64,000 bases of DNA from IMG/VR virus record IMGVR_UViG_3300021424_002547, positions 35,686 through 99,685 of that record, one strand, 5' to 3'. The stretch's first letter is position 1. The number at the start of each line of letters is the position of its first letter. Under the pieces are notes generated by a model. The model was not told the DNA's origin, ran no database searches, and was given only the letters and a program-made list of their open reading frames with translations. The DNA is from a virus. Positions 1 to 55,772 of this stretch are shown here, piece by piece. The translations under genes and the position numbers were made by a program.

Positions 1-2
1 AT

Positions 3-509
3 TTCAATGACTTACAAAATACGTATTATGATACATATGGGTTTAGAAAATTATCTCCCTGCGCAGAACTATTAGACGCATTTCTTTTAGATTTTGATAG
101 AACGTTAATCAGAAGTAGGATAGCCATATTAAATTCTCAACATTTAGATCCAACAACTATAAATTCCTGGGGGTGGCACAGAGATGAATCTGTTTTTGAA
201 AATATACGAATTAACATACCTATCCAAACTGACAATAATTATCTTTTTCAACTATTAGGAAAATCGACTCTACATTTAAAATATGGACACATGTATTCGT
301 GGGATACCAACGTTCCCCACAGAGTATTTCCTTATATAAATTCGATAAAAAATAGAATACATATAGTTTTAGGATTTAGCCCATGGTTCGATTACAATCC
401 TTTAGATCAATGCTGGTGCAGCAATGAATTCTATGGTAAAATACACCCGTTCGAAATGCTTATTTCGGGTTTAATAAATAAAAAGATAACAGGTGCAAAT
501 TATATATGA
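3..509 (+). CDS. Fe(II)/2OG-dependent oxygenase, Asp/Asn beta-hydroxylase-like (5' truncated by window edge)
   Basis: The frame of the 291..509 ORF is open back to position 3: ...IRSRIAIL...GWHRDESVFENIRINIPI...YSWDTNVPHRV, an HxD...H facial triad in a cupin/DSBH pattern. Confidence 0.75.
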   Translation, partial: FNDLQNTYYDTYGFRKLSPCAELLDAFLLDFDRTLIRSRIAILNSQHLDPTTINSWGWHRDESVFENIRINIPIQTDNNYLFQLLGKSTLHLKYGHMYSWDTNVPHRVFPYINSIKNRIHIVLGFSPWFDYNPLDQCWCSNEFYGKIHPFEMLISGLINKKITGANYI

Positions 510-1261
510 AACTATTTTCAGCTTCGGCTATATCTTTATCTATAATACAAATAATTTCTACAATTGGAGCTATAATTGGGCTATGGGTGTTTAGTTTTGA
601 CTATCTGTCTATTATAGTTATTCTCGTATCATACTATCTATATAGTGGTATCGGAGTGAGTATGATGCTACACCGTTTTTACGCACACAAAAGTTTTGAA
701 TTTAAATATCCCATTTTAAAATATGTGTTTACCTGGTTCGCTTTAATGTCTGGACGAGGAAGTATTATAGGTTGGGTTCATGTACATCGAGAACATCATG
801 CATTTTCTGACACTGAAAAAGATCCTCATTCTCCTAGTATAAAAGGATGGCGGGTGCTTTTTCCGCATTTGATGGATTACGGTAAAAAAATAAATGTAAG
901 ACTGGTAAGGGATTTACTTAATAAAAAACAAATATATATTAATGACTATTATATGTTGCTAGTATTATCTTGTGTCTCTATTTTGATAATCATCGATCCT
1001 TGGATAGCATATTTTTGTTGGTTTGTCCCGGTATCAATTACTCATTTTGTTTTAAACACATTCATTTATTTTGGTCATAATTTAGGGTATACTAATCATA
1101 AGTATAAAGATAATAGCAAAAACCTTTGGGTATATGGCATATTGCTCTGGGGCGAAGGTTGGCATAATAATCATCATTCGAATGCCAAAAATTGGAATAT
1201 GCAAGAGAAATGGTGGGAATTAGATCTGATAGCCCCCCTTATATACTTGGTAAAAAAATGA
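506..1261 (+). CDS. Membrane fatty-acid (delta-9-like) desaturase
   Basis: Three His boxes HRFYAH, HREHH, HNNHH; DPHSP and GEGWHNNHH motifs; TM helices. Confidence 0.9.
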   Translation: MKLFSASAISLSIIQIISTIGAIIGLWVFSFDYLSIIVILVSYYLYSGIGVSMMLHRFYAHKSFEFKYPILKYVFTWFALMSGRGSIIGWVHVHREHHAFSDTEKDPHSPSIKGWRVLFPHLMDYGKKINVRLVRDLLNKKQIYINDYYMLLVLSCVSILIIIDPWIAYFCWFVPVSITHFVLNTFIYFGHNLGYTNHKYKDNSKNLWVYGILLWGEGWHNNHHSNAKNWNMQEKWWELDLIAPLIYLVKK

Positions 1262-2031
1262 AAAATATATTTTCTAGTAATACTTTAGGAGTCCAAATAT
1301 TCGCTATCATAAGCATAATCGGCACAATTATAGGAATTTACAGTCATGGATTAGACTATTTTGCTCTATTACTTATTGTTATTGGATATTTCTTATATGG
1401 ATGTCTAGGAATAGTGGTCACATTCCACAGAAATCTCACCCATAATAGCTACGAGACTACTCCTATAATAAAAAATTTATTTTCACTACTGGGATGCTTC
1501 GGTAACACAGGTAGCCCATTAGCATGGACTGCTATCCATATCAATCATCATTTAAAAAGTGATAAAGTAACCGATCCTCATAGTCCTAAATACAGAGGAT
1601 ACAAAATATTTTCATTATCGTATGATGCACGGGTGGATGGTAACACTAAATGGAAAATGAGAAAACTTATAACAGATAGATATCAACAATTTTTACATCG
1701 TTACTATTTTATAATTTTATTTTTATGGAGCCTAATCCTATTCATATTAGGGGGATCATATCTGATGATATTTTTGCACTGGGCTCCTGCCTTGCTTACA
1801 GGGATCATGAGTAATGTTGTAAACTACATAGGACATAAACCTAATTGGTTTGGAAGTTATCGTCGATATAATTTGAAAGACCAGAGCACAAACAATTGGC
1901 TATGGGCGATTCCTAGCTGGGGAGAAACATGGCACAACAATCATCATAGGCATCCTAAGAACTACAGTTGCGGTGAATCATGGTGGGAAATAGATGTATC
2001 AGCGATGATAATAAAAATAATTAAAATTTAA
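1258..2031 (+). CDS. Membrane fatty-acid (delta-9-like) desaturase, second paralog
   Basis: HRNLTH, HINHH, HNNHH boxes and DPHSP; start moved to the ATG at 1258 that overlaps the previous stop (ATGA). Confidence 0.9.
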   Translation: MKNIFSSNTLGVQIFAIISIIGTIIGIYSHGLDYFALLLIVIGYFLYGCLGIVVTFHRNLTHNSYETTPIIKNLFSLLGCFGNTGSPLAWTAIHINHHLKSDKVTDPHSPKYRGYKIFSLSYDARVDGNTKWKMRKLITDRYQQFLHRYYFIILFLWSLILFILGGSYLMIFLHWAPALLTGIMSNVVNYIGHKPNWFGSYRRYNLKDQSTNNWLWAIPSWGETWHNNHHRHPKNYSCGESWWEIDVSAMIIKIIKI

Positions 2032-2034
2032 TCA

Positions 2035-3558
2035 ATGGTTAATTGTGTCATACTTTATGGTAACTCAGATTTTCCTACAGGGCCTAAAGCAGCCGGTCCA
2101 TTTAGAATAGCGTCAGAATTAAGAGATAACGGGTATACAGTACAGACGATAGATATAGCAATTTTTAAAAAGCTAGATAAAGACTTAAAAGATATTTTAA
2201 CGAAGTTTGTAGGTGTAGAAACTTTGTGGATAGGTATAAGCGTAACATTTCTACATAAAATTTTAAGTTACCCTTTTAGTTTGCAATTAATAGATGATGA
2301 AAGATATAAATCGTTAAATTTTGAAACACTAGAAGAAGAAATACATAAACTTATTTCTTTCGTTAGATCAATAAATCCTAAAATCAAAATGATATATGGT
2401 GGAGCCAGAAATTACCGATTAGATAAATTGGGGTTTATAAAATTTGAAAAATATGTCGATAAAGAAATTGTAGATTTTACAAACTGGTTGGCTGGAAAAT
2501 CCAATAAAATAGACCTTCAATTTTATTCAAACCATATAGTCGGAAAAGAATTCGAAGGGTTTACAAAATCATCAATAAAATACACAAAATCAGATATAAT
2601 TGATTCCAAAGACGTACTTCCATTAGAACTATCCAGAGGATGTATTTTCAAATGCAAATTTTGTAGTTATCCTTTAAACGGTAAAACCAAAGGAGAATGG
2701 ATTAAACAAAGCCATGTCTTAAAAGAAGAGTTAAAAAGGAATTATAATGACTTTGGCGTCACTAATTATTCCTTTACCGATGATACATACAATGATAGTG
2801 TAGACAAACTTAAAATTTTATATGACGAAGTTTATTCAAAACTTTCGTTTAAGATAAAATTTGCCACATACATAAGATTAGATTTATTAACAACTTTTCC
2901 AGAAACCTTAAAAATTCTTAAAGAGTCTGGATTAAAAAGTGCAGTTTGCGGAATAGAAAGTACCAATCCAAAATCTGCTAAGTCAATTGGAAAAGGAATG
3001 GATCCAAAAAGACAATTAGACTTTGTAAGAGAAATTAAACAGGACGTGTGGAAAGATATATTAATTTCTGGGAATTTTATAATCGGCTTGCCGCATGATA
3101 CTAAAGAAACTATAGATGATTTTGAATCATGGCTTTTAAGTTCAAGCAATCCATTAGATTATTGGTATGTTTTCCCGTTAGGAATATTTCCTTCTTATAC
3201 GAAAAAATCATATTATCAATCAGAATTTGATTTAAATTATGAAAAATATGGATATGAGATTTTAGATTCATCTAGTGAATTTTGGAAGGTATCTGGTTGG
3301 GTCAATAAAAACACAGGATTAGATTATGATTACTGCACTGCAAGATCAAAAGAGATTCGGCGTAAATCATCTTTTACGAATTGGAAATTTGGTGGTTGGC
3401 TATGGACTTTTTATCAAGAAATAGTTAATGATTATGATATAACTAATCTCTCTCAATCAGAAATAATAAAAAAATATGATCTACTATCATTTCGAAATAA
3501 TAAAGTAAATGATTACATAGATCAACTCAAGAATATCAATCACGTAATAGAAAAATAG
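2035..3558 (+). CDS. Radical SAM enzyme with B12-binding-like N-terminal domain
   Basis: ELSRGCIFKCKFC (CxxxCxxC), FTDDT, GIES, FIIGLPHDT; N-terminal RIASELRDNGYTVQTID Rossmann-like segment. Confidence 0.85.
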   Translation: MVNCVILYGNSDFPTGPKAAGPFRIASELRDNGYTVQTIDIAIFKKLDKDLKDILTKFVGVETLWIGISVTFLHKILSYPFSLQLIDDERYKSLNFETLEEEIHKLISFVRSINPKIKMIYGGARNYRLDKLGFIKFEKYVDKEIVDFTNWLAGKSNKIDLQFYSNHIVGKEFEGFTKSSIKYTKSDIIDSKDVLPLELSRGCIFKCKFCSYPLNGKTKGEWIKQSHVLKEELKRNYNDFGVTNYSFTDDTYNDSVDKLKILYDEVYSKLSFKIKFATYIRLDLLTTFPETLKILKESGLKSAVCGIESTNPKSAKSIGKGMDPKRQLDFVREIKQDVWKDILISGNFIIGLPHDTKETIDDFESWLLSSSNPLDYWYVFPLGIFPSYTKKSYYQSEFDLNYEKYGYEILDSSSEFWKVSGWVNKNTGLDYDYCTARSKEIRRKSSFTNWKFGGWLWTFYQEIVNDYDITNLSQSEIIKKYDLLSFRNNKVNDYIDQLKNINHVIEK

Positions 3559-4066
3559 GATCAGGATCACATTTTACAGTGAGGCTTATTCTTGGAGAAA
3601 AATTTTCGTCCATTATTACCTGATGAGGTGTCATTACTTTAAATACAGTTGGCATATCCAGTACAAAATTATCCACTTCAACTGCAGATTCTTGATCACA
3701 TAAAATAAATGGAAGTTTATTTTTTTGTACTATTTTAACATTAGGTCTGGCTTTAAAAAATTTGGTTTGACTATGCTCACAGTTTAAAATCGGAATATTA
3801 ATCCTGGTCTTATATTCATAGGTATCAATATGAACTAGACTATCACCATTTTTTATTGTTTTATATAAATTAAATCTAACCGGAGTCAAATTTAATTTTA
3901 AGAAAAAGTATAGAGTATCTGCACAGTGATCAATAACACTCTGTTTGTTTAATGGTATAAATCCGATAGTTTTATCATTTAAAATATCAGTATGGACTTT
4001 GAGATAGGTTAAAAGCTCAGATTGAATACTTTTTATATTCTTTATATTAATTTTTTTATAATTCAT
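3536..4066 (-). CDS. Fe(II)/2OG oxygenase-like cupin protein
   Basis: VHID...RINIPILNC...PHQV...RISLT pattern. Confidence 0.65.
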   Translation of the reverse strand: MNYKKINIKNIKSIQSELLTYLKVHTDILNDKTIGFIPLNKQSVIDHCADTLYFFLKLNLTPVRFNLYKTIKNGDSLVHIDTYEYKTRINIPILNCEHSQTKFFKARPNVKIVQKNKLPFILCDQESAVEVDNFVLDMPTVFKVMTPHQVIMDENFSPRISLTVKCDPDPIFLLRD

Positions 4067-4601
4067 CTAGCATGTGGACAGGGTCATTTTTAAATTCTAG
4101 TGCCATAGTTATTCTCGGAGTATTTTTTTCATTCATGATAGTGTTATGAGGTACGCTTGTCCTCATTATCCATGGACCTTTAATAACAATACTATCTCTA
4201 GCCCTGTAATTATTTCCTGGTTTGTAGCTTTTTACCCCAGAATCGGGATTTATCCATTCAACTAGATCTGATGATTCATAAAATATTGTTCTTGTATTAT
4301 GTGCATTTAACAAAGGAATCAATACTTTGGCAGATGGAGGAGATATGTCTGTATGTACAGGAGAATGCTTATTATTGTACATAATAAAAATTGATGCGAA
4401 ATAAGGCTCCATATTCAGTTTAGAAAATGCATCTAGTATAATCGGACAACAATTTAATAATTTATTAAAATTTAAAATATAATAACTTGCGTTATTCAAT
4501 CTTCTATTATATATTTCGTCTATAGATTTAACAAAATTAAGAGATTTTTCGGTTATTTCTTCAATGTTTGGGATCTCTAAATACTTGTAATATTTGCTCA
4601 T
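4056..4601 (-). CDS. Fe(II)/2OG oxygenase-like cupin protein
   Basis: VHTD...VLIPLLN...VPHNT...RITMA; paralog of the adjacent ORF. Confidence 0.65.
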   Translation of the reverse strand: MSKYYKYLEIPNIEEITEKSLNFVKSIDEIYNRRLNNASYYILNFNKLLNCCPIILDAFSKLNMEPYFASIFIMYNNKHSPVHTDISPPSAKVLIPLLNAHNTRTIFYESSDLVEWINPDSGVKSYKPGNNYRARDSIVIKGPWIMRTSVPHNTIMNEKNTPRITMALEFKNDPVHMLDEL

Positions 4602-4639
4602 AAATATAATTTATCCTTATAATTTTAATAATATGTAAA

Positions 4640-5134
4640 ATGATAAAAATTTTAAAAAACTTAGATAAAACAGCCATTGAAGAAATTCTACGTACTTACC
4701 AGACATTAGATTCACAAATCCAATGGCACAGTTCTGTAAACTCGAAACAAACAAGCGTACAATTCAAAAAAGGAGAAGATCATTGGGCAAGTTCTGTTGG
4801 TCGGCAAACAGGGGCAGAAACTGACTACGATCAATTAAATCCTTTTTTTAAGAATACAATTTTTGAAGATATCATAACAGAATATAATTTATATAGAAGT
4901 AGACTTATGTGGGTTTTACCTTATAGATGTTATAGTTTTCATAGAGATAGACTTCCTCGAATACATGTTCCTATCATAACTAATGAAGAATGTTATTTTT
5001 TATTTAGGACCGGGGAAATAAGGCATTTAACTGTAGATAAAATATGGCTAACTGATACCAGGCTAGCACACACATTTATTAATACTTCTGACTATGAAAG
5101 ATTGCATTTTGTTGGTGTAACTGCTGATCAATAA
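4640..5134 (+). CDS. Asp/Asn beta-hydroxylase-like Fe(II)/2OG oxygenase
   Basis: RSRLMW...SFHRD..RIHVPIITN...DTRLAHTFIN...RLHFV. Confidence 0.75.
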   Translation: MIKILKNLDKTAIEEILRTYQTLDSQIQWHSSVNSKQTSVQFKKGEDHWASSVGRQTGAETDYDQLNPFFKNTIFEDIITEYNLYRSRLMWVLPYRCYSFHRDRLPRIHVPIITNEECYFLFRTGEIRHLTVDKIWLTDTRLAHTFINTSDYERLHFVGVTADQ

Positions 5135-5135
5135 T

Positions 5136-5858
5136 CTAATCTAACGTGCTTAATATTTTATCATGCACACACTTATGGGTATGCTTCCCAGGATGACTTA
5201 AATCTCTCGCAAAATCATTGTCTGCCCATATTTCATTTGTAAAAACTTCATTAGAATTGTAAGTCTTAAATTTAATTCGATATGAATTGCATATATTTTC
5301 AATCGCTAATATGTTCTTCTTTTGATTGAGGAAAGAATTATTATTGTTCAGCAACCACGTTTTATAAAATCCATTATTCAAATATTCCGATTTTTCGTGC
5401 CTAAAAAATAGCACATCTTCATCATCCCAGAGTTCTAATCTAGTTGGTTCTGGACTAAGACAAATTACTATCTTTGGTAATAACTTCGCTATGTAATAAT
5501 ATGCAAGTCTAAATGAAGTATCATTAGAACTTGCACCCAGAGCTAGATTATAATATTTCATATTTAGGGATTTAGATAACTGATAAGCATATACTTCTTC
5601 TAATTGTAATCCGGTTCCAAATGTTAAACTACAGCCCAAAAATAATATTGAATTTCTATCGTGAGAGAACTCGTCTGATCGAAATCCTTCATTATTAAAA
5701 TTATAATAAATTTTTTTTTCTAGCCAACCGTTGACCGCTAATAAATTTCTATTTTTTTGCAAATTACGAACGAATCTTTCCTTCGTATCAAATAATTCCC
5801 ATTCTTGTGTGGTCCCAGAAAAAATTTTCCAAGGATGACTATTTAACGGAATTTCCAT
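5136..5858 (-). CDS. SGNH/GDSL-like hydrolase or acyltransferase
   Basis: FLGCSLTFG (block I), NLALGASSN (block II), DLSHPG (block V DxxH). Confidence 0.7.
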   Translation of the reverse strand: MEIPLNSHPWKIFSGTTQEWELFDTKERFVRNLQKNRNLLAVNGWLEKKIYYNFNNEGFRSDEFSHDRNSILFLGCSLTFGTGLQLEEVYAYQLSKSLNMKYYNLALGASSNDTSFRLAYYYIAKLLPKIVICLSPEPTRLELWDDEDVLFFRHEKSEYLNNGFYKTWLLNNNNSFLNQKKNILAIENICNSYRIKFKTYNSNEVFTNEIWADNDFARDLSHPGKHTHKCVHDKILSTLD

Positions 5859-5863
5859 AAGCG

Positions 5864-5892
5864 TATTTATGGTCGAAGTTTATCAATAAATA
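5864..5892. promoter_or_regulatory. Back-to-back TAAATA late-type promoters for divergent genes
   Basis: TATTTA at 5864-5869 and TAAATA at 5887-5892, each exactly 5 nt from an ATG, with no Shine-Dalgarno. Confidence 0.6.
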
Positions 5893-5897
5893 TAGTT

Positions 5898-6533
5898 ATG
5901 GACGATATTTTGTTCGCTAAAATCATTTTTCCAGATTTAAACAAAGAAAAATCTACATACGAAATTATGAAGATTGATAAATCTTATTGGTTTTGGGATC
6001 CCTATAGAGCAACCAATATGCTTTCACTAATGACAAAAAATCCTGTCCCCGGACCATTTGGAACTAAAAATAATCTACAAGGAGAATTTCAATGGTTGGC
6101 TTATACTCCCCCAGTGATAATAGATTGGTTTGAAACATACGTTTTTCCGTGGATGGGAACTAAAACCAGAATTATGGCACTGCTTACAAACCAGAAATCT
6201 AAAAATTTAGAACATGTAGATTGTGATAAAAATTCGATCTTCACAAAACAACATAAATTTAGAATAGTTTTAAAAGGAAAAACAGAAACACTGTATTTTA
6301 AAACTGATAAGCATGATGTGTATGTTCCAAATATTACATCACCATTTTTAATGGACGGAAGTTGGCCTCACGGAATGAATAACTTCGACGATGATTATAA
6401 GTTGACTATAGCAGCCGGAGCTCCTTGGGTGGGTAACGATTCATACACCAACATAGAAATTTTAATGAAGAGATCAGAATTCGTTTTCCCAGAGGATTAC
6501 AAAATTTATTTCAAAAAGGAATTTTCTACGTGA
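5898..6533 (+). CDS. Fe(II)/2OG oxygenase-like protein
   Basis: EHVDC...KFRIVL...MDGSWPHGM...KLTI, an HxD...H pattern. Confidence 0.6.
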   Translation: MDDILFAKIIFPDLNKEKSTYEIMKIDKSYWFWDPYRATNMLSLMTKNPVPGPFGTKNNLQGEFQWLAYTPPVIIDWFETYVFPWMGTKTRIMALLTNQKSKNLEHVDCDKNSIFTKQHKFRIVLKGKTETLYFKTDKHDVYVPNITSPFLMDGSWPHGMNNFDDDYKLTIAAGAPWVGNDSYTNIEILMKRSEFVFPEDYKIYFKKEFST

Positions 6534-7198
6534 ATGATTTTATCTTAAAAACTTATGACAATTTAACGATCCAAGATAAAGAATTTTTTTTTAATTTTTG
6601 CCGAGATGCTTCGAAAGAAACGGAAAAATCGGCGTCTGTTAATATGTGGGCTAGAAATACCTTTGTTAAACCATGGACTCTGGGATATCGATTAGAATCT
6701 ACTAATGAATTTAAAGAACCGAATGGAAAATTTTATATTCTATACAATAACAACGAAGTAATTGGATGTAGCGGTATACATGTAAGCGAATTTCATCCTT
6801 TGATATTTTCGGCTGGAGTAAGGACTTGGATCAAAAAAGAGTATAGGAATCAATCTATTAACAAAAAATATTTTTTCCCAGAACAACGATCTTGGGCTAT
6901 AAAGAAAGAAGCAAAAATAATATTTCTGTCATTTAATGAGTATAATAAAAATTTAATACAGGTTTTTAAAAGAAATAGATTAGGCGAAAATAAAGAAAGA
7001 GTTACAAATAGAAATAAAAATGACCTATTCAGTAATGGACTTAAAATAATCGATTTTCCGCTGATTATTAATCAAACAAAGCAATGGATATGTTACGAAA
7101 TTATAGATGAAGATTTTGATTACGATTGGACTCGACTTGCGTACTCAGATGATAGAAAAGAACAAATTTATACAAAAGATCTTTCAAAAAGATTTTAA
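6530..7198 (+). CDS. GNAT-fold acyltransferase-like protein
   Basis: FYILYNNNEVIGCSG...RTWIKKEYRNQSI (motif A-like), FNEYN. Confidence 0.55.
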   Translation: MNDFILKTYDNLTIQDKEFFFNFCRDASKETEKSASVNMWARNTFVKPWTLGYRLESTNEFKEPNGKFYILYNNNEVIGCSGIHVSEFHPLIFSAGVRTWIKKEYRNQSINKKYFFPEQRSWAIKKEAKIIFLSFNEYNKNLIQVFKRNRLGENKERVTNRNKNDLFSNGLKIIDFPLIINQTKQWICYEIIDEDFDYDWTRLAYSDDRKEQIYTKDLSKRF

Positions 7199-7200
7199 AA

Positions 7201-8688
7201 ATGGCAGAAATAGTATTGTTTACATGTATAGAAAGTGGAGGATTTTTCCGGAGTATCGGAGCTTATCAAATAGCTAATGCGTTAAGACAACAAGGCTATA
7301 CAGTACAGGTAGTTGATTGGTTATCTACTATTATTTCCAAAAATAATAGCATTTTCCTTAATATATTAGAAAAATATGTATCAAAAGATACCTTATGGAT
7401 CGGGTTTAGCACTACTTTTTTCTTTCATAAACCTAAAAAGAATTCAAATAAAATTAATAAAATCGATGAAACATTTAAAAACAATATTTTTGATAACAAA
7501 CAAATTACCGAGATTAAAGATTACGTTTATTCAATATCTCCAAAATGTAAATTTGTTCTAGGGGGCGGCAGAGCATATATAGAAGATACTTCCGGACTAA
7601 TAGATGTTTTTATTTTAGGATATGCAGATCAATCAGTAATAGAATTCACCAGATTTTGTCAAAACAAAAATCCATTTTTCCAATATAATTTATCCAAAGG
7701 AAAAATGATAATAAACAATGATACAAAGGCAGTTAATTATGATTTTTCAAATTCCAAATTCAGTTGGCATGATTCGGATCATATAAATTTTATGGAAGCT
7801 CTGCCAATAGAAATTTCTAGGGGATGTATATTCAACTGTAGTTATTGTTCGTATCCGTTAAACGGTAAAAAGAAATTAGATTATATTAAAAATCCGGAAA
7901 TATTAACAGAACTATTTCTTTCAAATTACGAAAAATACCAGACTACAAATTATGTTTATTTAGACGATACACACAACGACAGCACTGAGAAATTAGAACT
8001 ACTATTTAATAAAGTTTATTCTAAATTACCGTTTAAAATTAAATTTTGTACCTACCTTAGATTAGACTTACTGAATGCTCATCCAGAAACTATTGAATTA
8101 TTGTTATCAAGTGGATTAGTAAGTTGTTTTTTTGGCATAGAAAGTTTAAATTATGAATCTAACCGAGTTATCGGTAAAGGCATTAAACAAGATAAAATTA
8201 TTTCCACTTTGCAAAAAATAAAAGACGTATGGAAAGAAGATGTTAGGACTGAGGGAGGATTCATAATAGGATTGCCAAACGATTCTGTCGAATCAGTTAA
8301 ATCATGGGTGTCTACTTTAGAAAATGAAAATTTATTACATAGTTATAGATTTCATTCTTTAGGAATTAATCAAGTTTTTAAACAGAAACCATGGTCAAGC
8401 AAATTTGATCAAGATCCTATAAAATATGGTTACAAAATGTTACCAAACAATCATTGGATTAATAATAAAGGTATGACGTCGTTTCAAGCATGGCAAATTT
8501 ATATAGAATTAGAAAAAAGGCTAGGCAATAAACTTCCATGGACTGGTATTTTTGATTTCCATAATCTAGGTGCAAATTTTGAAGAATGTTTTGTCAGTGA
8601 TAGAATAGAAATGTATAAAAAATATTATAACAATAAAATAGAACTATATAGTAGTTACTTAAGGAAACTGTTACATGAACAAATTTAA
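7201..8688 (+). CDS. Radical SAM enzyme with B12-binding-like N-terminal domain, second paralog
   Basis: EISRGCIFNCSYCSYPLNGK, YLDDT, FGIES, FIIGLPND; clearly homologous to 2035..3558. Confidence 0.85.
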   Translation: MAEIVLFTCIESGGFFRSIGAYQIANALRQQGYTVQVVDWLSTIISKNNSIFLNILEKYVSKDTLWIGFSTTFFFHKPKKNSNKINKIDETFKNNIFDNKQITEIKDYVYSISPKCKFVLGGGRAYIEDTSGLIDVFILGYADQSVIEFTRFCQNKNPFFQYNLSKGKMIINNDTKAVNYDFSNSKFSWHDSDHINFMEALPIEISRGCIFNCSYCSYPLNGKKKLDYIKNPEILTELFLSNYEKYQTTNYVYLDDTHNDSTEKLELLFNKVYSKLPFKIKFCTYLRLDLLNAHPETIELLLSSGLVSCFFGIESLNYESNRVIGKGIKQDKIISTLQKIKDVWKEDVRTEGGFIIGLPNDSVESVKSWVSTLENENLLHSYRFHSLGINQVFKQKPWSSKFDQDPIKYGYKMLPNNHWINNKGMTSFQAWQIYIELEKRLGNKLPWTGIFDFHNLGANFEECFVSDRIEMYKKYYNNKIELYSSYLRKLLHEQI

Positions 8689-9133
8689 AGAAAATCACTT
8701 GCGAACTATATCTAAGGTTATTTCTTGGAGAGTTCTTATAACAATCAGCCATATGGTTAATGCATTCATAGTAACAGGAAGTCTGCTAATGGGTGTTAAG
8801 ATAGCAGGACTTGCCTTGGTAATTAACAGTGCTTTGTTCTGGATCCATGAACGTGCATGGAACATTTTTCAGTGGAATCGTCGAGAGAACGAAAAATTAA
8901 ATTTCGCAGAAGGCCATCCGAGATCTATTTCTAAAGTAGTATCTTGGAGAATTTTGATCACCGTAAGCAATTTCGTGATTCCATTTGTCATGACCGGTAG
9001 TTGGGGACAGGCTGCGCTATTTGCGGGAATGGCTACTGTAGTCAATATCATTCTATATTGGAGCCATGAAAGGATTTGGAATCGCATAAAATGGGGGAAA
9101 TCTGTAGAAACAAATATATCATACATATCATAA
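8675..9133 (+). CDS. DUF2061-type membrane protein with two repeats
   Basis: Two copies of R(T/S)ISKV(I/V)SWR...HER(A/I)WN. Confidence 0.75.
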   Translation: MNKFKENHLRTISKVISWRVLITISHMVNAFIVTGSLLMGVKIAGLALVINSALFWIHERAWNIFQWNRRENEKLNFAEGHPRSISKVVSWRILITVSNFVIPFVMTGSWGQAALFAGMATVVNIILYWSHERIWNRIKWGKSVETNISYIS

Positions 9134-9135
9134 AA

Positions 9136-10068
9136 ATGAATGAAATAGTTGATTATGGCATTAATTTTGGTTTTGATAATAATAAATTTTTTGTGGATTA
9201 TATCTCGTGCGGGTCAGACATTGGAAATTATAGGGAAGAATTTAAAAAACGTGCAGTAGAATTATCTAAAGCAAGCAAAAAAATATTGTTAGGATTAAGT
9301 TCTGGGCTAGATAGTCAAGCAGTATTACATAGCTTTTTTGAGCAAGGCATTAAAATCGAATGTGCATTTTTATATCAACCTAAATTTAATGAAATAGAAT
9401 ACAATCAATTAAAAATTGTTGCTAAAAAGTATAACATAAATCCTATTATTATAGAACTTGATCCTAATAACATTAAAGAAGAAATATTAGATCACTATAA
9501 TCAAACAGGAATCCCTCCTAATCAACTGATACACAAAAAATTTCTACAACAATTACCAGAAGACTACGATTTTGTTCAAGGAGTACACGGTCCTGACATT
9601 TTTTATAGGAACAATACTTGGTATTCCCTAGATTGTGCAGATTCTATGGAAATTTCTAGGCTGAGAGGGTTCGGTATGCTGGAAAGGAAAGGAAAAATAA
9701 TATGTTGGGAAAGGACTGGTTCTATATTATTAAGTATTTTAACAGATCATATTACTACATCATTTATGTATTCGTATAACTATATCGCCAGTAACCATCT
9801 AAAAACTACAGGAAAAGAAATTAACTTTATGAAAGATCACTGGGATATCTACATCAAACCCTTTCTATATGGAAAATATTGGAAAAATGAGTTAGAATAT
9901 TTTCCTAAATATCAAGGGTGTGAAGGTATTGATTATGTCATAGACGGACCAAAACACAATTATAGGAAAAATCGTGTAGTTATAAAATACGATGCATTAA
10001 TAAAACATCTTAAAAATCCTAAAGGAACAATTAAAAGAATTTATGAGTTTGAAGAAAATAAAAAATAA
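9136..10068 (+). CDS. PP-loop ATP pyrophosphatase (asparagine-synthase / adenine nucleotide alpha-hydrolase-like)
   Basis: ILLGLSSGLDSQAV, a variant of SGGxDS; C-terminal PKYQGCE. Confidence 0.6.
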   Translation: MNEIVDYGINFGFDNNKFFVDYISCGSDIGNYREEFKKRAVELSKASKKILLGLSSGLDSQAVLHSFFEQGIKIECAFLYQPKFNEIEYNQLKIVAKKYNINPIIIELDPNNIKEEILDHYNQTGIPPNQLIHKKFLQQLPEDYDFVQGVHGPDIFYRNNTWYSLDCADSMEISRLRGFGMLERKGKIICWERTGSILLSILTDHITTSFMYSYNYIASNHLKTTGKEINFMKDHWDIYIKPFLYGKYWKNELEYFPKYQGCEGIDYVIDGPKHNYRKNRVVIKYDALIKHLKNPKGTIKRIYEFEENKK

Positions 10069-10078
10069 CAATTTTCCA

Positions 10079-10107
10079 TTGATTTTTAACTTGACTGAAT
10101 ATAAACT
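10079..10107 (+). promoter_or_regulatory. sigma70-like promoter for the tRNA-like RNA
   Basis: TTGATT-N17-TAAACT; predicted +1 falls at about 10114, the first base of the RNA. Confidence 0.5.
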
Positions 10108-10113
10108 AAAAAC

Positions 10114-10225
10114 GTGGTCGTGAGCAAATTGGCAAAGCTCCCGCTGGACCCATAGTCCAGAATGGGGACGGGACGATGAGTATAACTCGCAGTCTTTGTA
10201 GGTTCGAAACCTACCGGCCGCACCA
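10114..10225 (+). tRNA. Non-canonical tRNA-like RNA (112 nt) with elongated anticodon and variable arms; CAT in the anticodon-like loop
   Basis: Acceptor stem GTGGTCG/CGGCCGC plus A-CCA; D arm GAGC-AAATTGGCAAA-GCTC; T arm GTAGG-TTCGAAA-CCTAC; central hairpin CTGGAC-CCATA-GTCCAG; second hairpin GAC..GAGT-ATA-ACTC..GTC. Confidence 0.75.
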
Positions 10226-10266
10226 TAACATAACATAAGTAAAATACATTTTATAAGGAAAACAAA

Positions 10267-10461
10267 ATGTCAAACACAGTAGAACAATTAAAAACACAAT
10301 TCGACGCATTCCTGGCAGAAGATGCTAAATTTACAGCAGGCAATGGATCTGCCGGCACCCGTGCTCGCAAAGCACTGCAAGAAGTGGCCAAACTGGTCAA
10401 GGCCCGCCGTAATGAAATTACAGCAGAGAAGAATGCTCGCAAGGAAGCCAAGGCCGGGTAA
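10267..10461 (+). CDS. Histone H1-like (Hc1-family) small DNA-binding protein
   Basis: GNGSAGTRARKALQE signature; basic and helical; AAGGA RBS. Confidence 0.8.
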   Translation: MSNTVEQLKTQFDAFLAEDAKFTAGNGSAGTRARKALQEVAKLVKARRNEITAEKNARKEAKAG

Positions 10462-11009
10462 TGGACTACGATGCATTTTCTAGCGGTCAGGTCGTAAGCA
10501 AACTATGGTTAGCCCAAGAACTAGAACCGATCGCTAGAGTGCATGCTAATCCAGCCAGGATAGTTTTAGTAGGCGGTTGGTACGGAGTTTTTAATTTCAT
10601 ATTAAGGGTGAGATCAAATATGTCTATAGAATCTGTCAGAAGCATCGATATCGATGCAGACGCCTGTTCCGTAGCAGATAAGATTAACGATACTTGGGTC
10701 TGGCAAAATTGGAAATTCAAATCTATTAATTCTGATGCCAACGACCACGATTATTCTAACAGTAACCTAGTCATAAACACCAGCGTAGAACACATAGACA
10801 CGCATCGATGGTTTGATAATATACCAAACGGGTGTTTGGTAGCATTACAAAGCAATGACATGGATCACGAAGATCATTGTCATAATCACGGATCGCTAGA
10901 TGATTTCAAGGGCGATTTTTCGTTATCGGAAGTTTTTTATTCTGGCATCAAGCATTTTGGGTATCCAGATTGGGGATTCAATAGATTCATGATCATAGGA
11001 AAAAAATAA
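10461..11009 (+). CDS. Class I SAM-dependent methyltransferase-like protein
   Basis: VLVGGWYG motif I, SIDID, INTSVEH. Confidence 0.7.
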   Translation: MDYDAFSSGQVVSKLWLAQELEPIARVHANPARIVLVGGWYGVFNFILRVRSNMSIESVRSIDIDADACSVADKINDTWVWQNWKFKSINSDANDHDYSNSNLVINTSVEHIDTHRWFDNIPNGCLVALQSNDMDHEDHCHNHGSLDDFKGDFSLSEVFYSGIKHFGYPDWGFNRFMIIGKK

Positions 11010-11020
11010 AGGACGATTTT

Positions 11021-11494
11021 ATGGACGACAAAGACAAAATAATTGGCAATGAAGATACTATGATCAATATCGATTATCTCGGTGGTGCCGCTGGACAATC
11101 TGTTCTGAGTTTTGATTGTTCAGATACCATAACTTTAGATACATCGATAACCTCACCTTGTACTATCACCATACCAGGATACAGTGCGCACTACAATTAC
11201 CCTAATACATTTACTACCAGCAGCGGATCTGGCTATACGCTAGGTGGAAGTATTCTCAACGACGGTATAGTTAGTATAGGTAATGACGGTATTGATATCC
11301 GAGAAGGCGGGGACATCAAGATCGGAAACCAAAGCCTCAAAGAATTTATGACGAAAATGGAACAGCGACTGGCTATCCTAGTTCCAGATCCTGCCAAATT
11401 AGAAAAATTTGAAGCACTTAAAAAAGCCTATGAGCATTACAAAACCATGGAAAGCCTCTGTTTCGACGAACCGATCGATGATGAAAACAAATGA
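11021..11494 (+). CDS. Hypothetical phage protein
   Basis: ORF with AAGGA RBS; low-complexity N-terminus, helical C-terminus (LKKAYEHYK). Confidence 0.6.
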   Translation: MDDKDKIIGNEDTMINIDYLGGAAGQSVLSFDCSDTITLDTSITSPCTITIPGYSAHYNYPNTFTTSSGSGYTLGGSILNDGIVSIGNDGIDIREGGDIKIGNQSLKEFMTKMEQRLAILVPDPAKLEKFEALKKAYEHYKTMESLCFDEPIDDENK

Positions 11495-12042
11495 TAAAAG
11501 TCTACGATGATCTCATTCCTGTACATCTGCAGGATTTTTTTGAATTATCTATCCTAGGACGCACCGACAGAGAAGACGAATGCCTACATCCCACCATAGA
11601 TCTTCGTTGCAAATACGAAAGCACGTCTAGGGAAAACGACCATACTCCGATAAGTTTTACGCACGTATTAAAATCCAGTTCTAAAGTTTCGAATCACCTA
11701 GATAATTTTGGTCTCATTCCGCAGATCGTTTGCAGCGAAGAAAATGCTATCCTTAGAGAAATAATCACCGCAAGGATCTTTCTGACCGTTCCCCATAAGA
11801 CAGACTTAAAAAATTATGCTGCGCATACCGATTTTGATTTCCCGCATCATGTCTGTCTTTATTATGTAAACAACGCAGATGGACCTACAGCATTCTATGA
11901 TCAGGAAGGAAAAGTCGTCGATGAAGTAATGCCTAAAAAGGGCAGAGTAATATTCTTCGATGGATTGATCAAACACGGTGGTGGAATACCTAGGAATGGC
12001 CCTAGATGCATCGTTAACTATGATATTTTAATAAAGGAATAA
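11491..12042 (+). CDS. Fe(II)/2OG oxygenase (phage type)
   Basis: AHTD...CLYYVNNADGPT...PKKGRVIFFDG..KHG...RCIVN. Confidence 0.8.
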   Translation: MIKVYDDLIPVHLQDFFELSILGRTDREDECLHPTIDLRCKYESTSRENDHTPISFTHVLKSSSKVSNHLDNFGLIPQIVCSEENAILREIITARIFLTVPHKTDLKNYAAHTDFDFPHHVCLYYVNNADGPTAFYDQEGKVVDEVMPKKGRVIFFDGLIKHGGGIPRNGPRCIVNYDILIKE

Positions 12043-12043
12043 C

Positions 12044-12727
12044 ATGAATGTTCGCTTGGTATCCTATTCAAAACCCTCAGATGAATTTGCAGTCCTCGGT
12101 ATCCAAGATGCGCAGGAACTCATCGCGTTCTGCGCCCGTGTCAGCAATCCCGCAAACCAATTCAATTCAGAGACATCAGAGAAGCTTATCCGATATCTTA
12201 TTAAACACGCACACTGGAGCCCCCTCGAGATGGTCTCTGCTTGCTTGGAAATCACGACGACTAGAGACATCGCAAGACAGATCCTTAGACACAGATCGTT
12301 CAGTTTTCAAGAGTTCTCACAGCGATATGCTAACCCTGTCGAGGATCTTAATTTCCACATTAGAGAAGCACGGTTGCAGGACACAAGAAACAGACAGAAC
12401 AGTGTCGAATTGGATATGCAAGACCCCAAACAAAGAGAACTTGCACGTCTATGGGCGGAAAAACAACAGACTGTCATTAGAGCCAGTAGAGAAGCCTACA
12501 CTTGGGCTGTATCTAACGGTATAGCCAAGGAGCAGGCTCGCTGTGTCTTACCGGAAGGCAATACTGAAAGCCGGCTGTATATGAACGGCACACTGCGTTC
12601 ATGGATCCATTATATAGAATTACGTGCAGCCAATGGTACCCAAAAGGAGCACATGGACATCGCCCGAGCCTGTGCCGAAACCATAGCCAAAGTATTTCCA
12701 ATGGCAGAATCATTAATTTCCAATTGA
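12044..12727 (+). CDS. thyX: Flavin-dependent thymidylate synthase
   Basis: HWSPLE, RQILRHRSFSFQEFSQRY ThyX motif, EQARCVLP. Confidence 0.97.
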   Translation: MNVRLVSYSKPSDEFAVLGIQDAQELIAFCARVSNPANQFNSETSEKLIRYLIKHAHWSPLEMVSACLEITTTRDIARQILRHRSFSFQEFSQRYANPVEDLNFHIREARLQDTRNRQNSVELDMQDPKQRELARLWAEKQQTVIRASREAYTWAVSNGIAKEQARCVLPEGNTESRLYMNGTLRSWIHYIELRAANGTQKEHMDIARACAETIAKVFPMAESLISN

Positions 12728-12729
12728 TA

Positions 12730-12758
12730 TTGACAGGTTTTTAAAGATCTCGTATAAT
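12730..12758 (+). promoter_or_regulatory. Consensus sigma70 promoter
   Basis: TTGACA-N17-TATAAT. Confidence 0.85.
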
Positions 12759-12785
12759 TAAGTTGTTCGACATAGAGAAAATATT

Positions 12786-13610
12786 ATGAGAGCAAACTAC
12801 TGGTCATGTTCACGGTTCGCAGATTGGCTGCGGGGTACCGCTAAAATCAAAGCGGGCACCGGCAAAGAATGGCGCCTCTGGGAAGAAGAGGCCAAAACTA
12901 GCCATCCCATCCGTTATTGGATCGTCGAAGAGGGTCTCGATTACCTCCAAAATTTCGTCAATTGGCCCGCGGATCGACTTAATGACATCCGCTATTATAT
13001 CAACAATCGCTGGGTCAGCCATACTCACAGGCTTACTGCTCATCCTAGAGATATCAAACCAGGGTCCTGGTCAGACGTAGGAAATCGTTTCTTGCCTTGC
13101 TTGTTTAACGAACTAGTCGATTTTGTAGAAATCGAGCAGGCTTGGCATCATGTACTGTGGGACAAAGAAGCACGTGAAAAATATCAGACACCTTGGAGTC
13201 GAAATTTCTTTCGTTTTCGTACGTGGCGCTGTTCAGAAGCAGGCGTCGATCACTTGAAGTGGGCTATGACACTGACTAACGAAGAATTCTTAGACGAAGA
13301 TGAGAAGCATCTAGCAGAACCTACCTATCAGGCCAAAGCAGCCAAAGAAATTCTAGAACTTTATACTTGGTGGAAAGAAGTCTATCCAAATCGTCCAGAT
13401 GTCCACGATGCTTCAGGATGGACTGCCTACTGCGAAATGCGCCGTGAAAAAGGTTATAAGTTTCTCGATATGGAAGATAAGACTCCTGAAGAAGCGGAGA
13501 TGTGTAAAACCGCTCTTGACAAATCACAAGAGTTGGAATTACAATATGCTAAAGAAGATGAAGAAATGATGATCCGATTAATCAAAATAAGAGAAAGTCT
13601 GTGGACCTAA
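12786..13610 (+). CDS. Hypothetical phage protein (Trp-rich)
   Basis: 274-aa ORF directly downstream of a consensus promoter; C-terminal MMIRLIKIRESLWT. Confidence 0.7.
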   Translation: MRANYWSCSRFADWLRGTAKIKAGTGKEWRLWEEEAKTSHPIRYWIVEEGLDYLQNFVNWPADRLNDIRYYINNRWVSHTHRLTAHPRDIKPGSWSDVGNRFLPCLFNELVDFVEIEQAWHHVLWDKEAREKYQTPWSRNFFRFRTWRCSEAGVDHLKWAMTLTNEEFLDEDEKHLAEPTYQAKAAKEILELYTWWKEVYPNRPDVHDASGWTAYCEMRREKGYKFLDMEDKTPEEAEMCKTALDKSQELELQYAKEDEEMMIRLIKIRESLWT

Positions 13611-52115: not shown

Positions 52116-52958
52116 ATGGACTATTACTCTACTTTAGGTGTTAATAGAAACGCCACCCAAGACGAAATTAAAAAAGCGTATCGCAAGATGGCTATGAACC
52201 ATCATCCTGATCGCGGTGGAGATGAGAAAAAATTTAAACAGATTTCGGAAGCCTATGAAATCTTAAGTGATCCTCAAAAAAAACAGATGGTAGACATGGG
52301 TATAGATCCCAAGAGACAACCGCAAGGTAATGGATTCGGACAAAACGGTCCTTTCGAGTTTCATTTCAATGCTAACAATTTTGATGATATATTTGGTGGA
52401 TTCGGATTTGGTGGATTCGGACACAGACATGTTCAAAGAAACAAAACTATCAGCCTCATGGTGGATCTTACATTAGAAGATGTCTTACAAGGTAAAAATC
52501 TAGATGCAGAAATAGCCATACCTGGAGGAAGGAAAAAGATTATTAATATCGTGATACCGTCTGGAATAGAAGAAGGACAACAGATAAGATATCAAGGAAT
52601 GGGAGATAATAGCATTTCTAACATACCTCCCGGAGATTTAATAGTTAATGTTAGAATCATGCCGCACGGAATGTTTCGACGAGAAGGCGATAACCTAATA
52701 CTAGAAAAATTCATCTCAGCATGGGATGCCATGTTAGGAACAAAAATAGATATTTCTACACTAGACAACAAGTCATTAGAAATCGCTGTACCGGCAGGTA
52801 GCCAGCCCGAAACAGTATTAAGTTGCAGAAACGAAGGATTGCCAAATATGCGTAGCAAGTTAAGAGGTAATCTTTTAGTAAAAATAAAAATTAAAATACC
52901 AAAAATTACATCAACTAAACAGAAAGATCTCGTAGAACAATTGAAAAATGGATTATAA
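52116..52958 (+). CDS. dnaJ: Class B J-domain chaperone (DnaJ/CbpA-like)
   Basis: HPD motif, G/F region, C-terminal domains, no Zn finger. Confidence 0.92.
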
Positions 52959-53442
52959 ACTAGGACCGCATCAAAGCCTTCAACAAGTAAGCACTTCTTG
53001 GGATTTTTCTCGAGACGGTGATTCTGAAAAATTAGAATCTGATCTATGTTATTTTATGCAGAAACATATGGGTATAGGTTTAGCCGCTAATCAAATAGGT
53101 ATTGCTAAACAAATTTTTGTAATGGGCAGCGATAATATTCCGGGATTTCCTAAACCCTTCGCAGTTTTCAATCCAAAAATAATCAGCACAGATCAAGAAA
53201 AAGAAATCTTCAAAGAAGGATGTCTGAGTTTCCCTGGACTTTGGTTGAACGTAAAAAGGCCAAAAAAAATAATAGTGGAGTACCAGAACAGTCGAGGAGA
53301 CATCATAGAAGCAGAAATGGACGGATTAATTTCTAGATGCTTTCAGCATGAATTTGATCATCTCAATGGTATATGTTTCGTTGACATCGTTAGTCCCTTG
53401 AAGTTAAAATTAGCAATACAAAAACTAAGGAAACAAAAATAA
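52948..53442 (+). CDS. def: Peptide deformylase
   Basis: [22 protein letters not shown]. Confidence 0.95.
53381..53410 (+). promoter_or_regulatory. sigma70-like promoter upstream of clpA
   Basis: TTGACA-N18-TAAAAT. Confidence 0.45.
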
Positions 53443-55772
53443 TGATAGAGCCCAGCCAGCACCTGCATAATATCTTTAATACCGCCGTTGAAATAGCCAA
53501 GCAGTTAAATCATGAGTACATCACTATAGAACATCTAGTCTATAGCATCATGAGTGATCAAGAATCGTATGACATGATTTCTAACTTTGGGGCCGATGCT
53601 AATTTTATTAAGACCAATCTAGATCATTATCTAAAAAATAACCTCAAAGAAATCATCTCACAATCTCAGGTAAAGAAACCTAAAAAAACCACTAGTGTTG
53701 AACGTGTGTTGAATCGATGTTTTACACAGGTTTTGTTCAGCGGCAGGCAACGCATGGAGATCGCAGACGTTATTATCAGTGTACTGGCTGAAAAAAACAG
53801 TTTTGGTTATTATTTTCTAAACAAAGGCGGTCTGACTAAAGAAAAATTTGTGAAATATTTCCAAGAAAATGTTATCATAGAAGAAGAACAAGAAAGTATT
53901 CCAGCGACCACGAACAATCAGATAGAAAGAATTCTAAATCAATTCTGCACGAACCTAACCTTACAGGCTAAACAACGTAAGATTGATCCGGTGATAGGAC
54001 GAGACGAAGAATTAGAAAAAATCCAACTGATTCTAGCACGTAGAAATAAATGCAATGTGTTAATGGTAGGAGAACCCGGAGTAGGCAAGACTGCGATCGC
54101 AGAGGGGTTGGCTCGAAAGATTTTCGAGGACAAGGTTCCTAAATTTATCAAAGACCATACAGTCTATACTTTAGATATATCAGCATTATTAGCCGGGTCA
54201 AAGTATCGTGGTGACTTTGAAGAACGAATCAAAGCCGTATTCACCGCACTAGAAAAAAAAGGTAAGATCATTTTATTCATCGACGAAGCACACATGATGC
54301 AGGGTGCAGGGGCCGCTAATCAATCAAGCAACGATATGAGCAATATGCTAAAACCCATATTGACCAAAAAGTCTATGAAAATCATAGCGTCCACTACCTG
54401 GGAAGAATATCGAAAGCACTTTGAAAAAGACCGTGCTTTGATGCGTCGTTTCCAGCGTGTGACCATCGATGAACCCAATGAAGAACTAACTATTAAAATC
54501 TTAAAAGGATTGAAAAAGTATTATGAAAAACATCATGAAGTAAAAATTACCGATGCTGCTATAGATCAGGCTGTGAAACTTTCTATGAAATACATGTCAG
54601 ATAAAAAACTGCCAGATAAAGCCATAGATATCTTAGACTGCGCAGCGGCTCGATATAAACTTAAAGATGACGAAAATATGGAAGGTGTAGAACAGATCGT
54701 AGATATAGAACAGGTTACCTACGAACTCAGTAAGATGATCAACATGCCATTAGAGATTGTTGCTCAGAAAGAAAGCAAAAATCTTTCTGATCTAGAAGGA
54801 AATATGAAATCATCAGTTTTGGGTCAAGATGGAGCTATTGATACACTGCTAGATAAAATATTCGTCAGCCAAGCAGGAATGAAATCACCTAACAAACCTG
54901 TTGGAAGTTTTCTATTCCTAGGACCTACTGGCTGTGGAAAAACTGAAACTGCCAAACAATTAGCAGAAAAGATGGGAATGCAATTAGTTCGATTCGACAT
55001 GAGCGAGTACCAAGAAAAACACTCGGTGGCTCGTCTGATCGGTGCTCCACCGGGCTATGTAGGATACGAAGATAATTCCGGTCAACTGATCACTAAATTA
55101 CAAGAATATCCCAATTGTGTGTTGCTGCTAGATGAAATCGAAAAAAGCCATCCTGATGTTTCTAACATCTTGCTGCAGTTTATGGATAACGGTTTCGTCA
55201 CAGGATCGAATGGCAAACAGGCCGATGGTCGCAACTGTATCCTTATCATGACCAGCAACTTAGGTGCCCGGGACAACGAAAACAACACCATCGGGTTCGG
55301 CGAACTTGAGCGCGAAGGAGAAGATGATAAAGCTATTAAAAAGTTTTTTGCTCCGGAATTTCGCAATCGACTAGATGCAGTAGTGAAATTTGGTAGATTA
55401 AACATCGAAACTGTAGAAAAAATCGTACATAAATTTATCAACGATTTAAACTTCCAACTTAGAGACAAGAATATTGAAATAGTAGCAGATGATAATTCTG
55501 TTAAATGGTTGGCAAAAAACGGATATGATCGAAAAATGGGAGCCAGACCGTTAGCCAGATTGATCGATAATAAAATAAAATCACCGTTGAGTAGAAGGGT
55601 TCTGTTTGGCGATCTCGTCGACGGCGGAAATATACACATCCAACTATCTGGAGAAGAAATCACTTTTACCGTCACTGAACGGGCGAAACCGTTAACAAAA
55701 CAACAGAAAAAATTATTAAAGAGAGGATCTCCTTTAGTGATGGAAGAAAAAATCGAAGATGCACAAACATAG
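53442..55772 (+). CDS. clpA: Clp protease ATP-binding subunit
   Basis: Clp N-domain; two AAA+ modules ([16 protein letters not shown]); IGF ClpP-docking loop; no ClpB middle domain. Confidence 0.93.

Follow-up and report, generated by a model that had tools for sequence, protein, structure and literature searches.

A family of anticodon-less tRNA-Leu look-alikes carried by uncultivated T4-like lake phages

Introduction

Non-decoding tRNA mimics that are under selection are rare, and the known cases, namely tmRNA, viral tRNA-like structures, and the tRNAs of cell-wall synthesis, revealed new biology. The tRNA-like domain of tmRNA embodies the idea of a chargeable, anticodon-less mimic served by a synthetase that ignores the anticodon; it is specific for alanine through the G3.U70 pair, has no D stem, and is accompanied by a tag reading frame and pseudoknots. 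Non-proteinogenic tRNA-Gly species of Staphylococcus, the donors for cell-wall synthesis by FemXAB, keep their anticodon and evade translation via weak binding to EF-Tu. Among viruses, the 3' tRNA-like structures of plant RNA viruses and the tRNA-like RNAs of murine gammaherpesvirus 68 likewise engage host tRNA enzymes, and these mimics are the 3' ends of RNA genomes or products of eukaryotic pol III. YrlA and other bacterial Y RNAs, which occur in some phages, are also non-coding RNAs with a tRNA-like module, and their ends form a Ro-binding stem. Phage T4 produces the small stable RNAs C and D (species 1 and 2), which adjoin or derive from tRNA genes; rnaC possesses a T-arm-like hairpin, but the T4 RNAs are devoid of the D arm and of the A73-CCA acceptor end.

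The RNA described here was found in a window of 64,000 nt that corresponds to bases 35,686–99,685 of a 99.7-kb IMG/VR viral contig, and no description of such an RNA was found in the literature. Its pair 3-70 is G-C, it contains no reading frame, and ARAGORN reports no tmRNA, all in contrast to tmRNA. Its likeness to the staphylococcal tRNA-Gly lies in the notion of a charged tRNA that feeds a transferase outside translation, whereas in the look-alike the anticodon arm itself is gone and the T stem is ordinary. Unlike the mimics of eukaryotic viruses, it comes from a DNA phage that encodes it as a gene of its own, and its core is a true cloverleaf; unlike YrlA, it ends in a free CCA acceptor. 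The closest relatives are class II tRNA-Leu molecules such as that of T4 (AF158101, 72370–72456), with which the look-alike has in common A73-CCA, an acceptor stem of 7 bp, a D arm whose 3-bp stem closes an AAAUUGG-type loop, a canonical T arm, and the long variable arm. What sets it apart is that it has neither the anticodon stem-loop of 5 bp and 7 nt nor a leucine anticodon, the place of which is taken by an arbitrary hairpin of 12–38 nt.

Results

Anatomy of the RNA

The 112-nt RNA occupies positions 10114–10225 of the window (plus strand, as do all RNA elements given below) and scores 104.1 bits (E = 4e-23) against R1, a covariance model built from the family described below with the window sequence in its seed alignment. 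The 5' strand of the acceptor stem, GUGGUCG (10114–10120), pairs with CGGCCGC (10215–10221) over 7 bp, two of which are G.U pairs, and the 3' acceptor segment (10215–10225) ends with the discriminator A73 at 10222 and the encoded CCA at 10223–10225. The D arm (10123–10139) has a 3-bp stem and a GG-containing loop of the AAAUUGGCAAA type, as in T4 tRNA-Leu, and the T arm (10198–10214; GUAGG/UUCGAAA/CCUAC) has a canonical loop. The original prediction, which was made from the letters of the window alone, had described this acceptor stem with its encoded A-CCA as well as the canonical D and T arms, and all of them are present. It had also proposed an oversized core with 57 nt between the D and T arms; the core is indeed oversized, but the gap amounts to 58 nt, which two hairpins fill in the MFE fold. 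Both hairpins had likewise been anticipated. The first, CUGGAC-CCAUA-GUCCAG at 10144–10160, forms the distal part of an over-long “anticodon” arm (10140–10166), a hairpin of 10–11 bp with a 5-nt loop that reads, in the MFE fold, CCC(G), CUGGAC, CCAUA loop, GUCCAG, AA(U) bulge, and GGG, that is, a CCC/GGG base helix and a bulge beneath a 6-bp helix. The second, of 27 nt at 10170–10196, is a long variable arm of class II type. The fold z-score of the window RNA is only -2.6.

Standard detectors pass over this RNA. ARAGORN with default settings called neither a tRNA nor a tmRNA for it and made no calls anywhere in the window, and no Rfam family reached its threshold for 10114–10225. Only the tRNA model (RF00005) matched in a permissive Rfam search with E up to 10, at 24.8 bits against a gathering score of 29, over the full length and with the middle handled as insertions, and neither YrlA nor any other Y RNA was matched in that search. 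Among the features of a canonical tRNA, the 7-bp acceptor stem, the D arm with G18G19, and the T arm with a UUCRANY loop are present, while the anticodon stem of 5 bp with a 7-nt loop, U33, and a conserved anticodon are absent. Judged as a class II tRNA-Leu, the RNA has A73, CCA, the long variable arm, and the Leu-type D arm (3-bp stem, AAUUGG-type loop) but no leucine anticodon (NAG or YAA).

Homologous loci and covariation

Three exact-pattern scans of IMG/VR, one each for the hairpin, for the D arm, and for the boundary where the variable arm meets the T arm (the third yielding counts that are to be read as “at least”), returned over 120 homologous loci from many metagenome datasets, which is a lower bound; these loci comprise 89 distinct sequences. 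All 16 matches of the 17-nt hairpin pattern were true homologs, sharing the 5' 60 nt of the window copy and having compensatory changes in the variable arm. Two alignments were scored against the proposed structure: an 82-sequence MAFFT alignment, the extraction for which demanded seven of seven acceptor pairs and so dropped three loci with a single A.C mismatch, and an 89-sequence alignment that contains these loci and, because it was fitted to the family model, is biased towards the proposed structure. In the second D-arm variant found in the family, the exact register of the D stem is ambiguous.

Paired cells made up 87.7% of the 82-sequence and 91.4% of the 89-sequence alignment. The covariation scores were 0.26 and 0.34, respectively, against 0.12–0.13 for column shuffles, none of 500 being as high, and sliding the partners by 1–3 columns lowered the score to 0.04–0.09. 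Two-sided changes were seen in five of the seven acceptor pairs, with 98.9% of cells paired. The pairs C27-G53 and C28-G52 of the long arm were always paired, with three pair types each; all six pairs of the distal “anticodon”-arm helix covary, as do pairs of the variable arm, where A60-U80 alternates with G-C and the inner helix also covaries. The T arm is 100% paired, and its second stem pair changes from U-A to G-C in 15 of 89 sequences. In the 82-sequence alignment U8, G18G19, the U preceding the T stem, the T loop, and A73 are invariant, and CCA is encoded in all but three sequences, which have CCG instead. Compensatory changes across all helices indicate that selection maintains the structure and that the gene is not a pseudogene in decay. 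The RNA at 10114–10225 is thus real beyond chance, given that 89 distinct homologs retain every helix with compensatory changes. A few copies (L082:6074–6183, L146:6483–6588, and L121:3045–3169), in which the 5' acceptor strand or the entire 5' half is swapped for unrelated sequence, score lower, at 28–72 bits, and look broken or recombined.

Loss of the anticodon arm

When the arm that follows the D stem and precedes the variable arm was excised from all 89 sequences and folded, its length ranged from 12 to 38 nt, apart from one outlier of 70 nt. The terminal loops were GNRA in 25 sequences, YYAYA/UCAUA in 21, and UUCG in 10, the rest being assorted, and the shortest members (96–100 nt in total) have just a stem of 4–6 bp capped by a tetraloop. 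A 5-bp stem with a 7-nt loop occurs in none of the 88 members with arms of 12–38 nt, and the sole 7-nt loop belongs to the 70-nt outlier. The CAU of the window copy is not conserved either, since the loops of close relatives read CCAUA, UCAUA, CUAUA, and CCACA. The arm is interchangeable across the family, and the proposal in the original prediction that the RNA does not decode is borne out by the missing anticodon loop: the look-alike is very probably a non-decoding derivative of tRNA-Leu. An alternative pairing of the CCAU loop with an AUGG in the bulge, which would produce a pseudoknot, was considered and rejected, because the bulge reads AAU, AAA, UUA, or AGU across the family and does not covary with the loop.

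Leu-type body

Members of the family score 51–119 bits with R1. The best ordinary tRNAs are the tRNA-Leu of T4 (43 bits) and the tRNA-Leu(CAA) of the same contig (38 bits), with tRNA-Ser and tRNA-Tyr below tRNA-Leu, so that a clear gap separates the look-alikes from real tRNA-Leu at 38–43 bits. The D arm is letter-identical to that of ordinary tRNA-Leu genes on other phage contigs and near that of T4 tRNA-Leu. The resemblance to tRNA-Leu pointed out earlier is accordingly upheld by the top-ranking matches, and the ancestry of the family is of Leu type. Homology to the T4 stable RNAs was rejected, R1 giving only 19.9 bits on a part of rnaC and nothing on rnaD.

Several ordinary tRNAs deserve mention in their own right. 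Outside the window, the contig encodes a 95-nt tRNA (G000:C1:10106–10200; L168:1501–1595) that ARAGORN assigns to Ile(UAU) and in which A73 and a G1.U72 pair accompany a long variable arm of class II type; its R1 score of 35.7 bits adjoins those of tRNA-Leu. The combination of a class II body with an anticodon that reads AUA is unusual, and LeuRS might charge this tRNA. In the tRNA-Leu(CAA) genes of the contig (G000:C1:11039–11120 and 11730–11810) the variable regions are much reduced, and two other phage contigs (L031:184–260 and L056:1927–2003) carry 77-nt, class-I-shaped CAA tRNAs with the Leu-type D arm of the look-alike.

Promoter and transcript start

The upstream flanks of the family (88 unique) contain TTG at -35 to -33 in 82–91% and TATAAT or TATACT at -12 to -7 with 64–92% per position, when nucleotide 1 of the RNA is taken as +1. 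Their consensus is a near-perfect TTGACA-N17-TATAAT that ends 6 nt short of nucleotide 1. The conservation of +1 at G1 suggests that the RNA is a primary transcript for which no RNase P is needed, and a σ70-type promoter suggests transcription by the host polymerase, i.e., early in infection. In the window copy only a weak σ70-like remnant is left (10079–10105, plus strand), consisting of TTGATT (10079–10084), a 15-nt spacer, and TATAAA (10100–10105) ending 8 nt ahead of G1, and a scan with consensus promoters called none upstream of G1 in this copy. The original prediction had placed a promoter of the RNA's own from about 10114. Promoter-like hexamers do exist, but they lie upstream, at 10079–10105, and are weakened, and 10114 is likely the transcript start instead.

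The damage seems to have come from the neighborhood. The GC content rises from 0.30 to 0.44 near position 10000, and the AT-rich island that occupies 1–10068 of the window, with genes for a radical SAM protein, a GNAT protein, a DUF2061 protein, and a PP-loop ATPase, takes the position that a divergent radical-SAM gene has upstream of the RNA in most relatives. The island thus seems to have been inserted beside the RNA, and read-through from it may contribute to transcription of the RNA in the window. Contigs of 80–96 nt in a lake metatranscriptome match 10125–10223 at 95–99% and thereby hint, if only weakly, at a stable RNA, since DNA can occur in RNA libraries; such contigs cannot reveal the ends of the RNA, and the lack of coverage at 9900–10115 and 10224–10385 is not evidence of absence.

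Phage context and distribution

CheckV estimates the contig to be 28% complete, which would correspond to a genome of about 350 kb. Its clamp loader is closest to that of the Pseudomonas jumbo phage PA5oct (54% identity), and lake-water metagenomes, of which many may be the contig's own source, contain near-identical DNA. The contig has 22 ordinary tRNA genes at 7738–12877 of its own numbering, outside the window and about 33 kb upstream of the look-alike. Related large contigs (146–199 kb, 41–53% complete) also carry one copy each, apart from their tRNA arrays.

No copy was found in PA5oct or in Synechococcus phage S-SRM01, which are the closest isolates as judged by the clamp loader and the Hc1-like protein described below, respectively, and a blastn search of 50,697 isolated phage genomes with three family members gave no family match. 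A pattern scan of 185,579 prokaryote genomes, one per species, yielded a single true member of 96 nt (L176:3191–3286/L177:2785–2880; CAUYTX010000437.1) on a 14-kb tRNA-array contig labeled Gammaproteobacteria; this contig is probably phage DNA, and its label is possibly a clue to the host. The look-alike is a member of a big conserved family of phage RNAs without an Rfam entry, and the family is carried once per genome by uncultivated, T4-like lake phages of roughly 350 kb.

Discussion

The features that the family has kept are those that a leucyl-tRNA synthetase would read. Bacterial LeuRS does not use the anticodon, and minimal tRNA-Leu molecules without an anticodon arm are still chargeable. 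Because A73, CCA, the Leu-type D loop, and the elbow are the parts read by LeuRS, we infer leucylation by the host enzyme, and the RNA is probably charged. Our favored reading, to which we hold tentatively, is that the look-alike is a tRNA mimic that accepts leucine and functions away from the ribosome. According to this reading, host RNA polymerase would transcribe the RNA early from its σ70 promoter, starting at or beside nucleotide 1, so that no 5' leader has to be removed; the transcript would fold into the L-shape of a tRNA with its acceptor end, elbow, and long variable arm intact and with an arbitrary stable hairpin in place of the anticodon arm; the host LeuRS would charge it with leucine; and the charged RNA would work apart from the ribosome. 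Its likeliest role would then be to supply leucine, as a private carrier, to an aminoacyl-tRNA-dependent transferase, and minimally it might be a tRNA-Leu body that occupies tRNA-binding proteins. Service as an aminoacyl donor agrees with the conserved A73-CCA and the Leu-type elbow, and we consider it possible, though clearly less assured than charging. Several points speak against a leucine carrier. A73 and CCA are common to many types of tRNA, and the T stem is ordinary, with no sign of EF-Tu avoidance. Known aminoacyl-tRNA transferases, moreover, work with ordinary tRNAs, so the need for a private donor is not obvious. Genes for LeuRS (PF00133), L/F-transferase (PF03588), and FemAB (PF02388) were not found in four partial contigs of 28–53% completeness, nor was a TROVE/Ro gene (PF05731) found in them; at such completeness these absences carry little weight either way.

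One specific use of a donor would be a phage-run N-degron pathway. Bacterial N-degron transferases attach leucine from Leu-tRNA to proteins, and ClpS recognizes N-terminal leucine. In the window, genes for DnaJ, peptide deformylase, and a ClpA-like protein adjoin at 52116–55772, the last being a double-AAA+ ATPase at 53442–55772; ClpP is encoded on this contig (G000:C1:6514–7017) and in two relatives, and ClpS in two relatives (G001:C1:136322–136555 and G003:C1:38307–38543). These genes together are a possible set for N-degron proteolysis run by the phage and offer one lead in favor of a donor role. ClpS and ClpP have been noted in jumbo phages before (PMC7824862). If the look-alike took part in such a pathway, the host LeuRS would charge it, the lack of an anticodon would keep it outside translation, and the leucine would be passed to a host enzyme of L/F- or Bpt-type or to a small phage protein with a transferase fold, whereupon N-terminal leucine would mark chosen host or phage proteins for the phage ClpS, ClpA-like protein, and ClpP. 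We regard a private leucine carrier for this pathway as doubtful.

Two proteins were considered as transferases. In one relative, a protein of 151 amino acids is encoded about 10 kb from the RNA (L178:1231–1683; G001:C1:85730–86182). It matches Pfam ATE_C at 22.9 bits, below the 25-bit cut-off, and its predicted fold (pLDDT 88.7) is most similar to A-PGS/MprF, ATE1, and FemX, all of which are aminoacyl-tRNA transferases; its family is a single-domain phage version. The family is, however, far commoner than the RNA, being present on at least 548 viral contigs, and the protein was rejected as a dedicated partner, because the RNA lies within 10 kb at only 2 of 80 loci and three jumbo phage genomes of at least 98% completeness carry the protein without the RNA. 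The GNAT gene of the AT-rich island (6530–7198, 222 amino acids), 3 kb upstream of the RNA, was also rejected as an aminoacyl transferase, as its confident predicted fold is that of the ordinary acetyl-CoA GNATs PaiA and SpeG.

The main rival to a leucine-accepting mimic is a sponge, the host target of which would be a protein that recognizes the tRNA-Leu body or the CCA end. An abundant early RNA, charged or not, would present a class II tRNA-Leu body with CCA and thereby titrate or inhibit its target, which might be LeuRS itself or a defense toxin acting on the acceptor end or elbow of tRNAs by modification or cleavage. The strong early-type promoter at +1 and the stand-alone single gene with no conserved partner gene are in keeping with such a role, as are the nearly phage-only occurrence, with one 14-kb contig among the 185,579 species genomes, and the free variation of the distal arm, which would be expected if the body alone matters. 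tRNA-directed toxins are, besides, common in anti-phage defense. A catalytic enzyme would, however, be hard to titrate against the large host pool of tRNA, and the strict set of leucine identity features would be unexplained unless the target reads the same features. A sponge is possible on this balance, but we would not call it likely.

A lesser rival is a role in cis. An Hc1 histone-H1-like gene (10267–10461, plus strand; Pfam Hc1, E = 3.5e-14) follows the RNA in the window, and such a gene lies 39–65 nt downstream, or closer in a few cases, in 78 of 112 family loci. The spacer contains the motif AUAAGUA (10235–10241, plus strand), which is kept in 53 unique spacers and is often set within a small hairpin of variable stem. 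This motif could be a processing or regulatory site, whereas the idea of a general late promoter or genome-wide motif was discarded, there being only 13 copies on the contig. The RNA might accordingly be the 5' module of an early operon, in which a tRNA shape at the head of the Hc1 transcript guides tRNA 3'-end enzymes or RNase E, or shields the 5' end, and so determines how stable the downstream mRNA is or how well it is translated. The frequent Hc1 neighbor, the conserved motif in the spacer, and transcription from nucleotide 1 would accord with this idea, and no terminator-like site was found in the window to separate the Hc1-like gene from the RNA. On the other hand, the link to Hc1 is frequent and not obligatory, since in the other 34 loci the RNA is followed by genes for 2OG oxygenases, methyltransferases, a glycosyltransferase, RimK, or small secreted proteins, or lies in tRNA arrays. 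A plain hairpin would also suffice for stability, and the invariant A73, the Leu-type D loop, and the conserved variable arm would be unneeded for processing. A role in cis is therefore improbable, and, because A73 as well as the D and variable arms would be dispensable for processing enzymes, the leucine-accepting mimic is favored over it.

The remaining explanations are far weaker. The original prediction had suggested a decoy for anticodon nucleases, for which the general shape of a tRNA and nothing more can be adduced. Such a decoy must display the loop that is cleaved, and here that loop is missing and replaced by GNRA, UUCG, or YYAYA, the length of the arm varies threefold, and CAU gives way to UAU and CAC even in close relatives (CUAUA and CCACA), all of which makes this role very unlikely. 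The suggestion of a precursor from which splicing of an intron or insert would yield a decoding tRNA fares still worse. When ARAGORN is permitted introns and run at the reduced threshold of 80%, it does yield a model of tRNA-Pro(GGG) with an 18-nt intron; the same setting, however, makes 175 calls on the contig of about 100 kb, which are mostly noise, and the model disrupts the D stem, while covariation backs the long hairpin and not the anticodon stem drawn by ARAGORN. The members of 96–100 nt, which consist of a stub and a tetraloop at this place, leave nothing to splice, so that no excision could form an anticodon loop, and we consider a precursor to be highly improbable. That the RNA is a functionless, decaying pseudo-tRNA, as its escape from standard tRNA detectors might suggest, is almost inconceivable in view of the compensatory changes in every helix, including the extra ones, over 89 distinct sequences, the conserved promoter, and the single copy per genome across many metagenomes.

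The anticodon-less tRNA-Leu look-alikes are new among tRNA mimics. The family, which is represented in many lake metagenomes by more than 120 contigs and is predicted to be driven by a strong early promoter, retains the features that are read by the one class of bacterial synthetases that ignores the anticodon. As a defined class, it can be adopted by tRNA annotation pipelines and merits an Rfam entry. It raises the question of what advantage a phage draws from a tRNA body that can be charged but is of no use to the ribosome, whether as a donor of leucine, as a sponge in the contest with host defense, or as a regulator of LeuRS.
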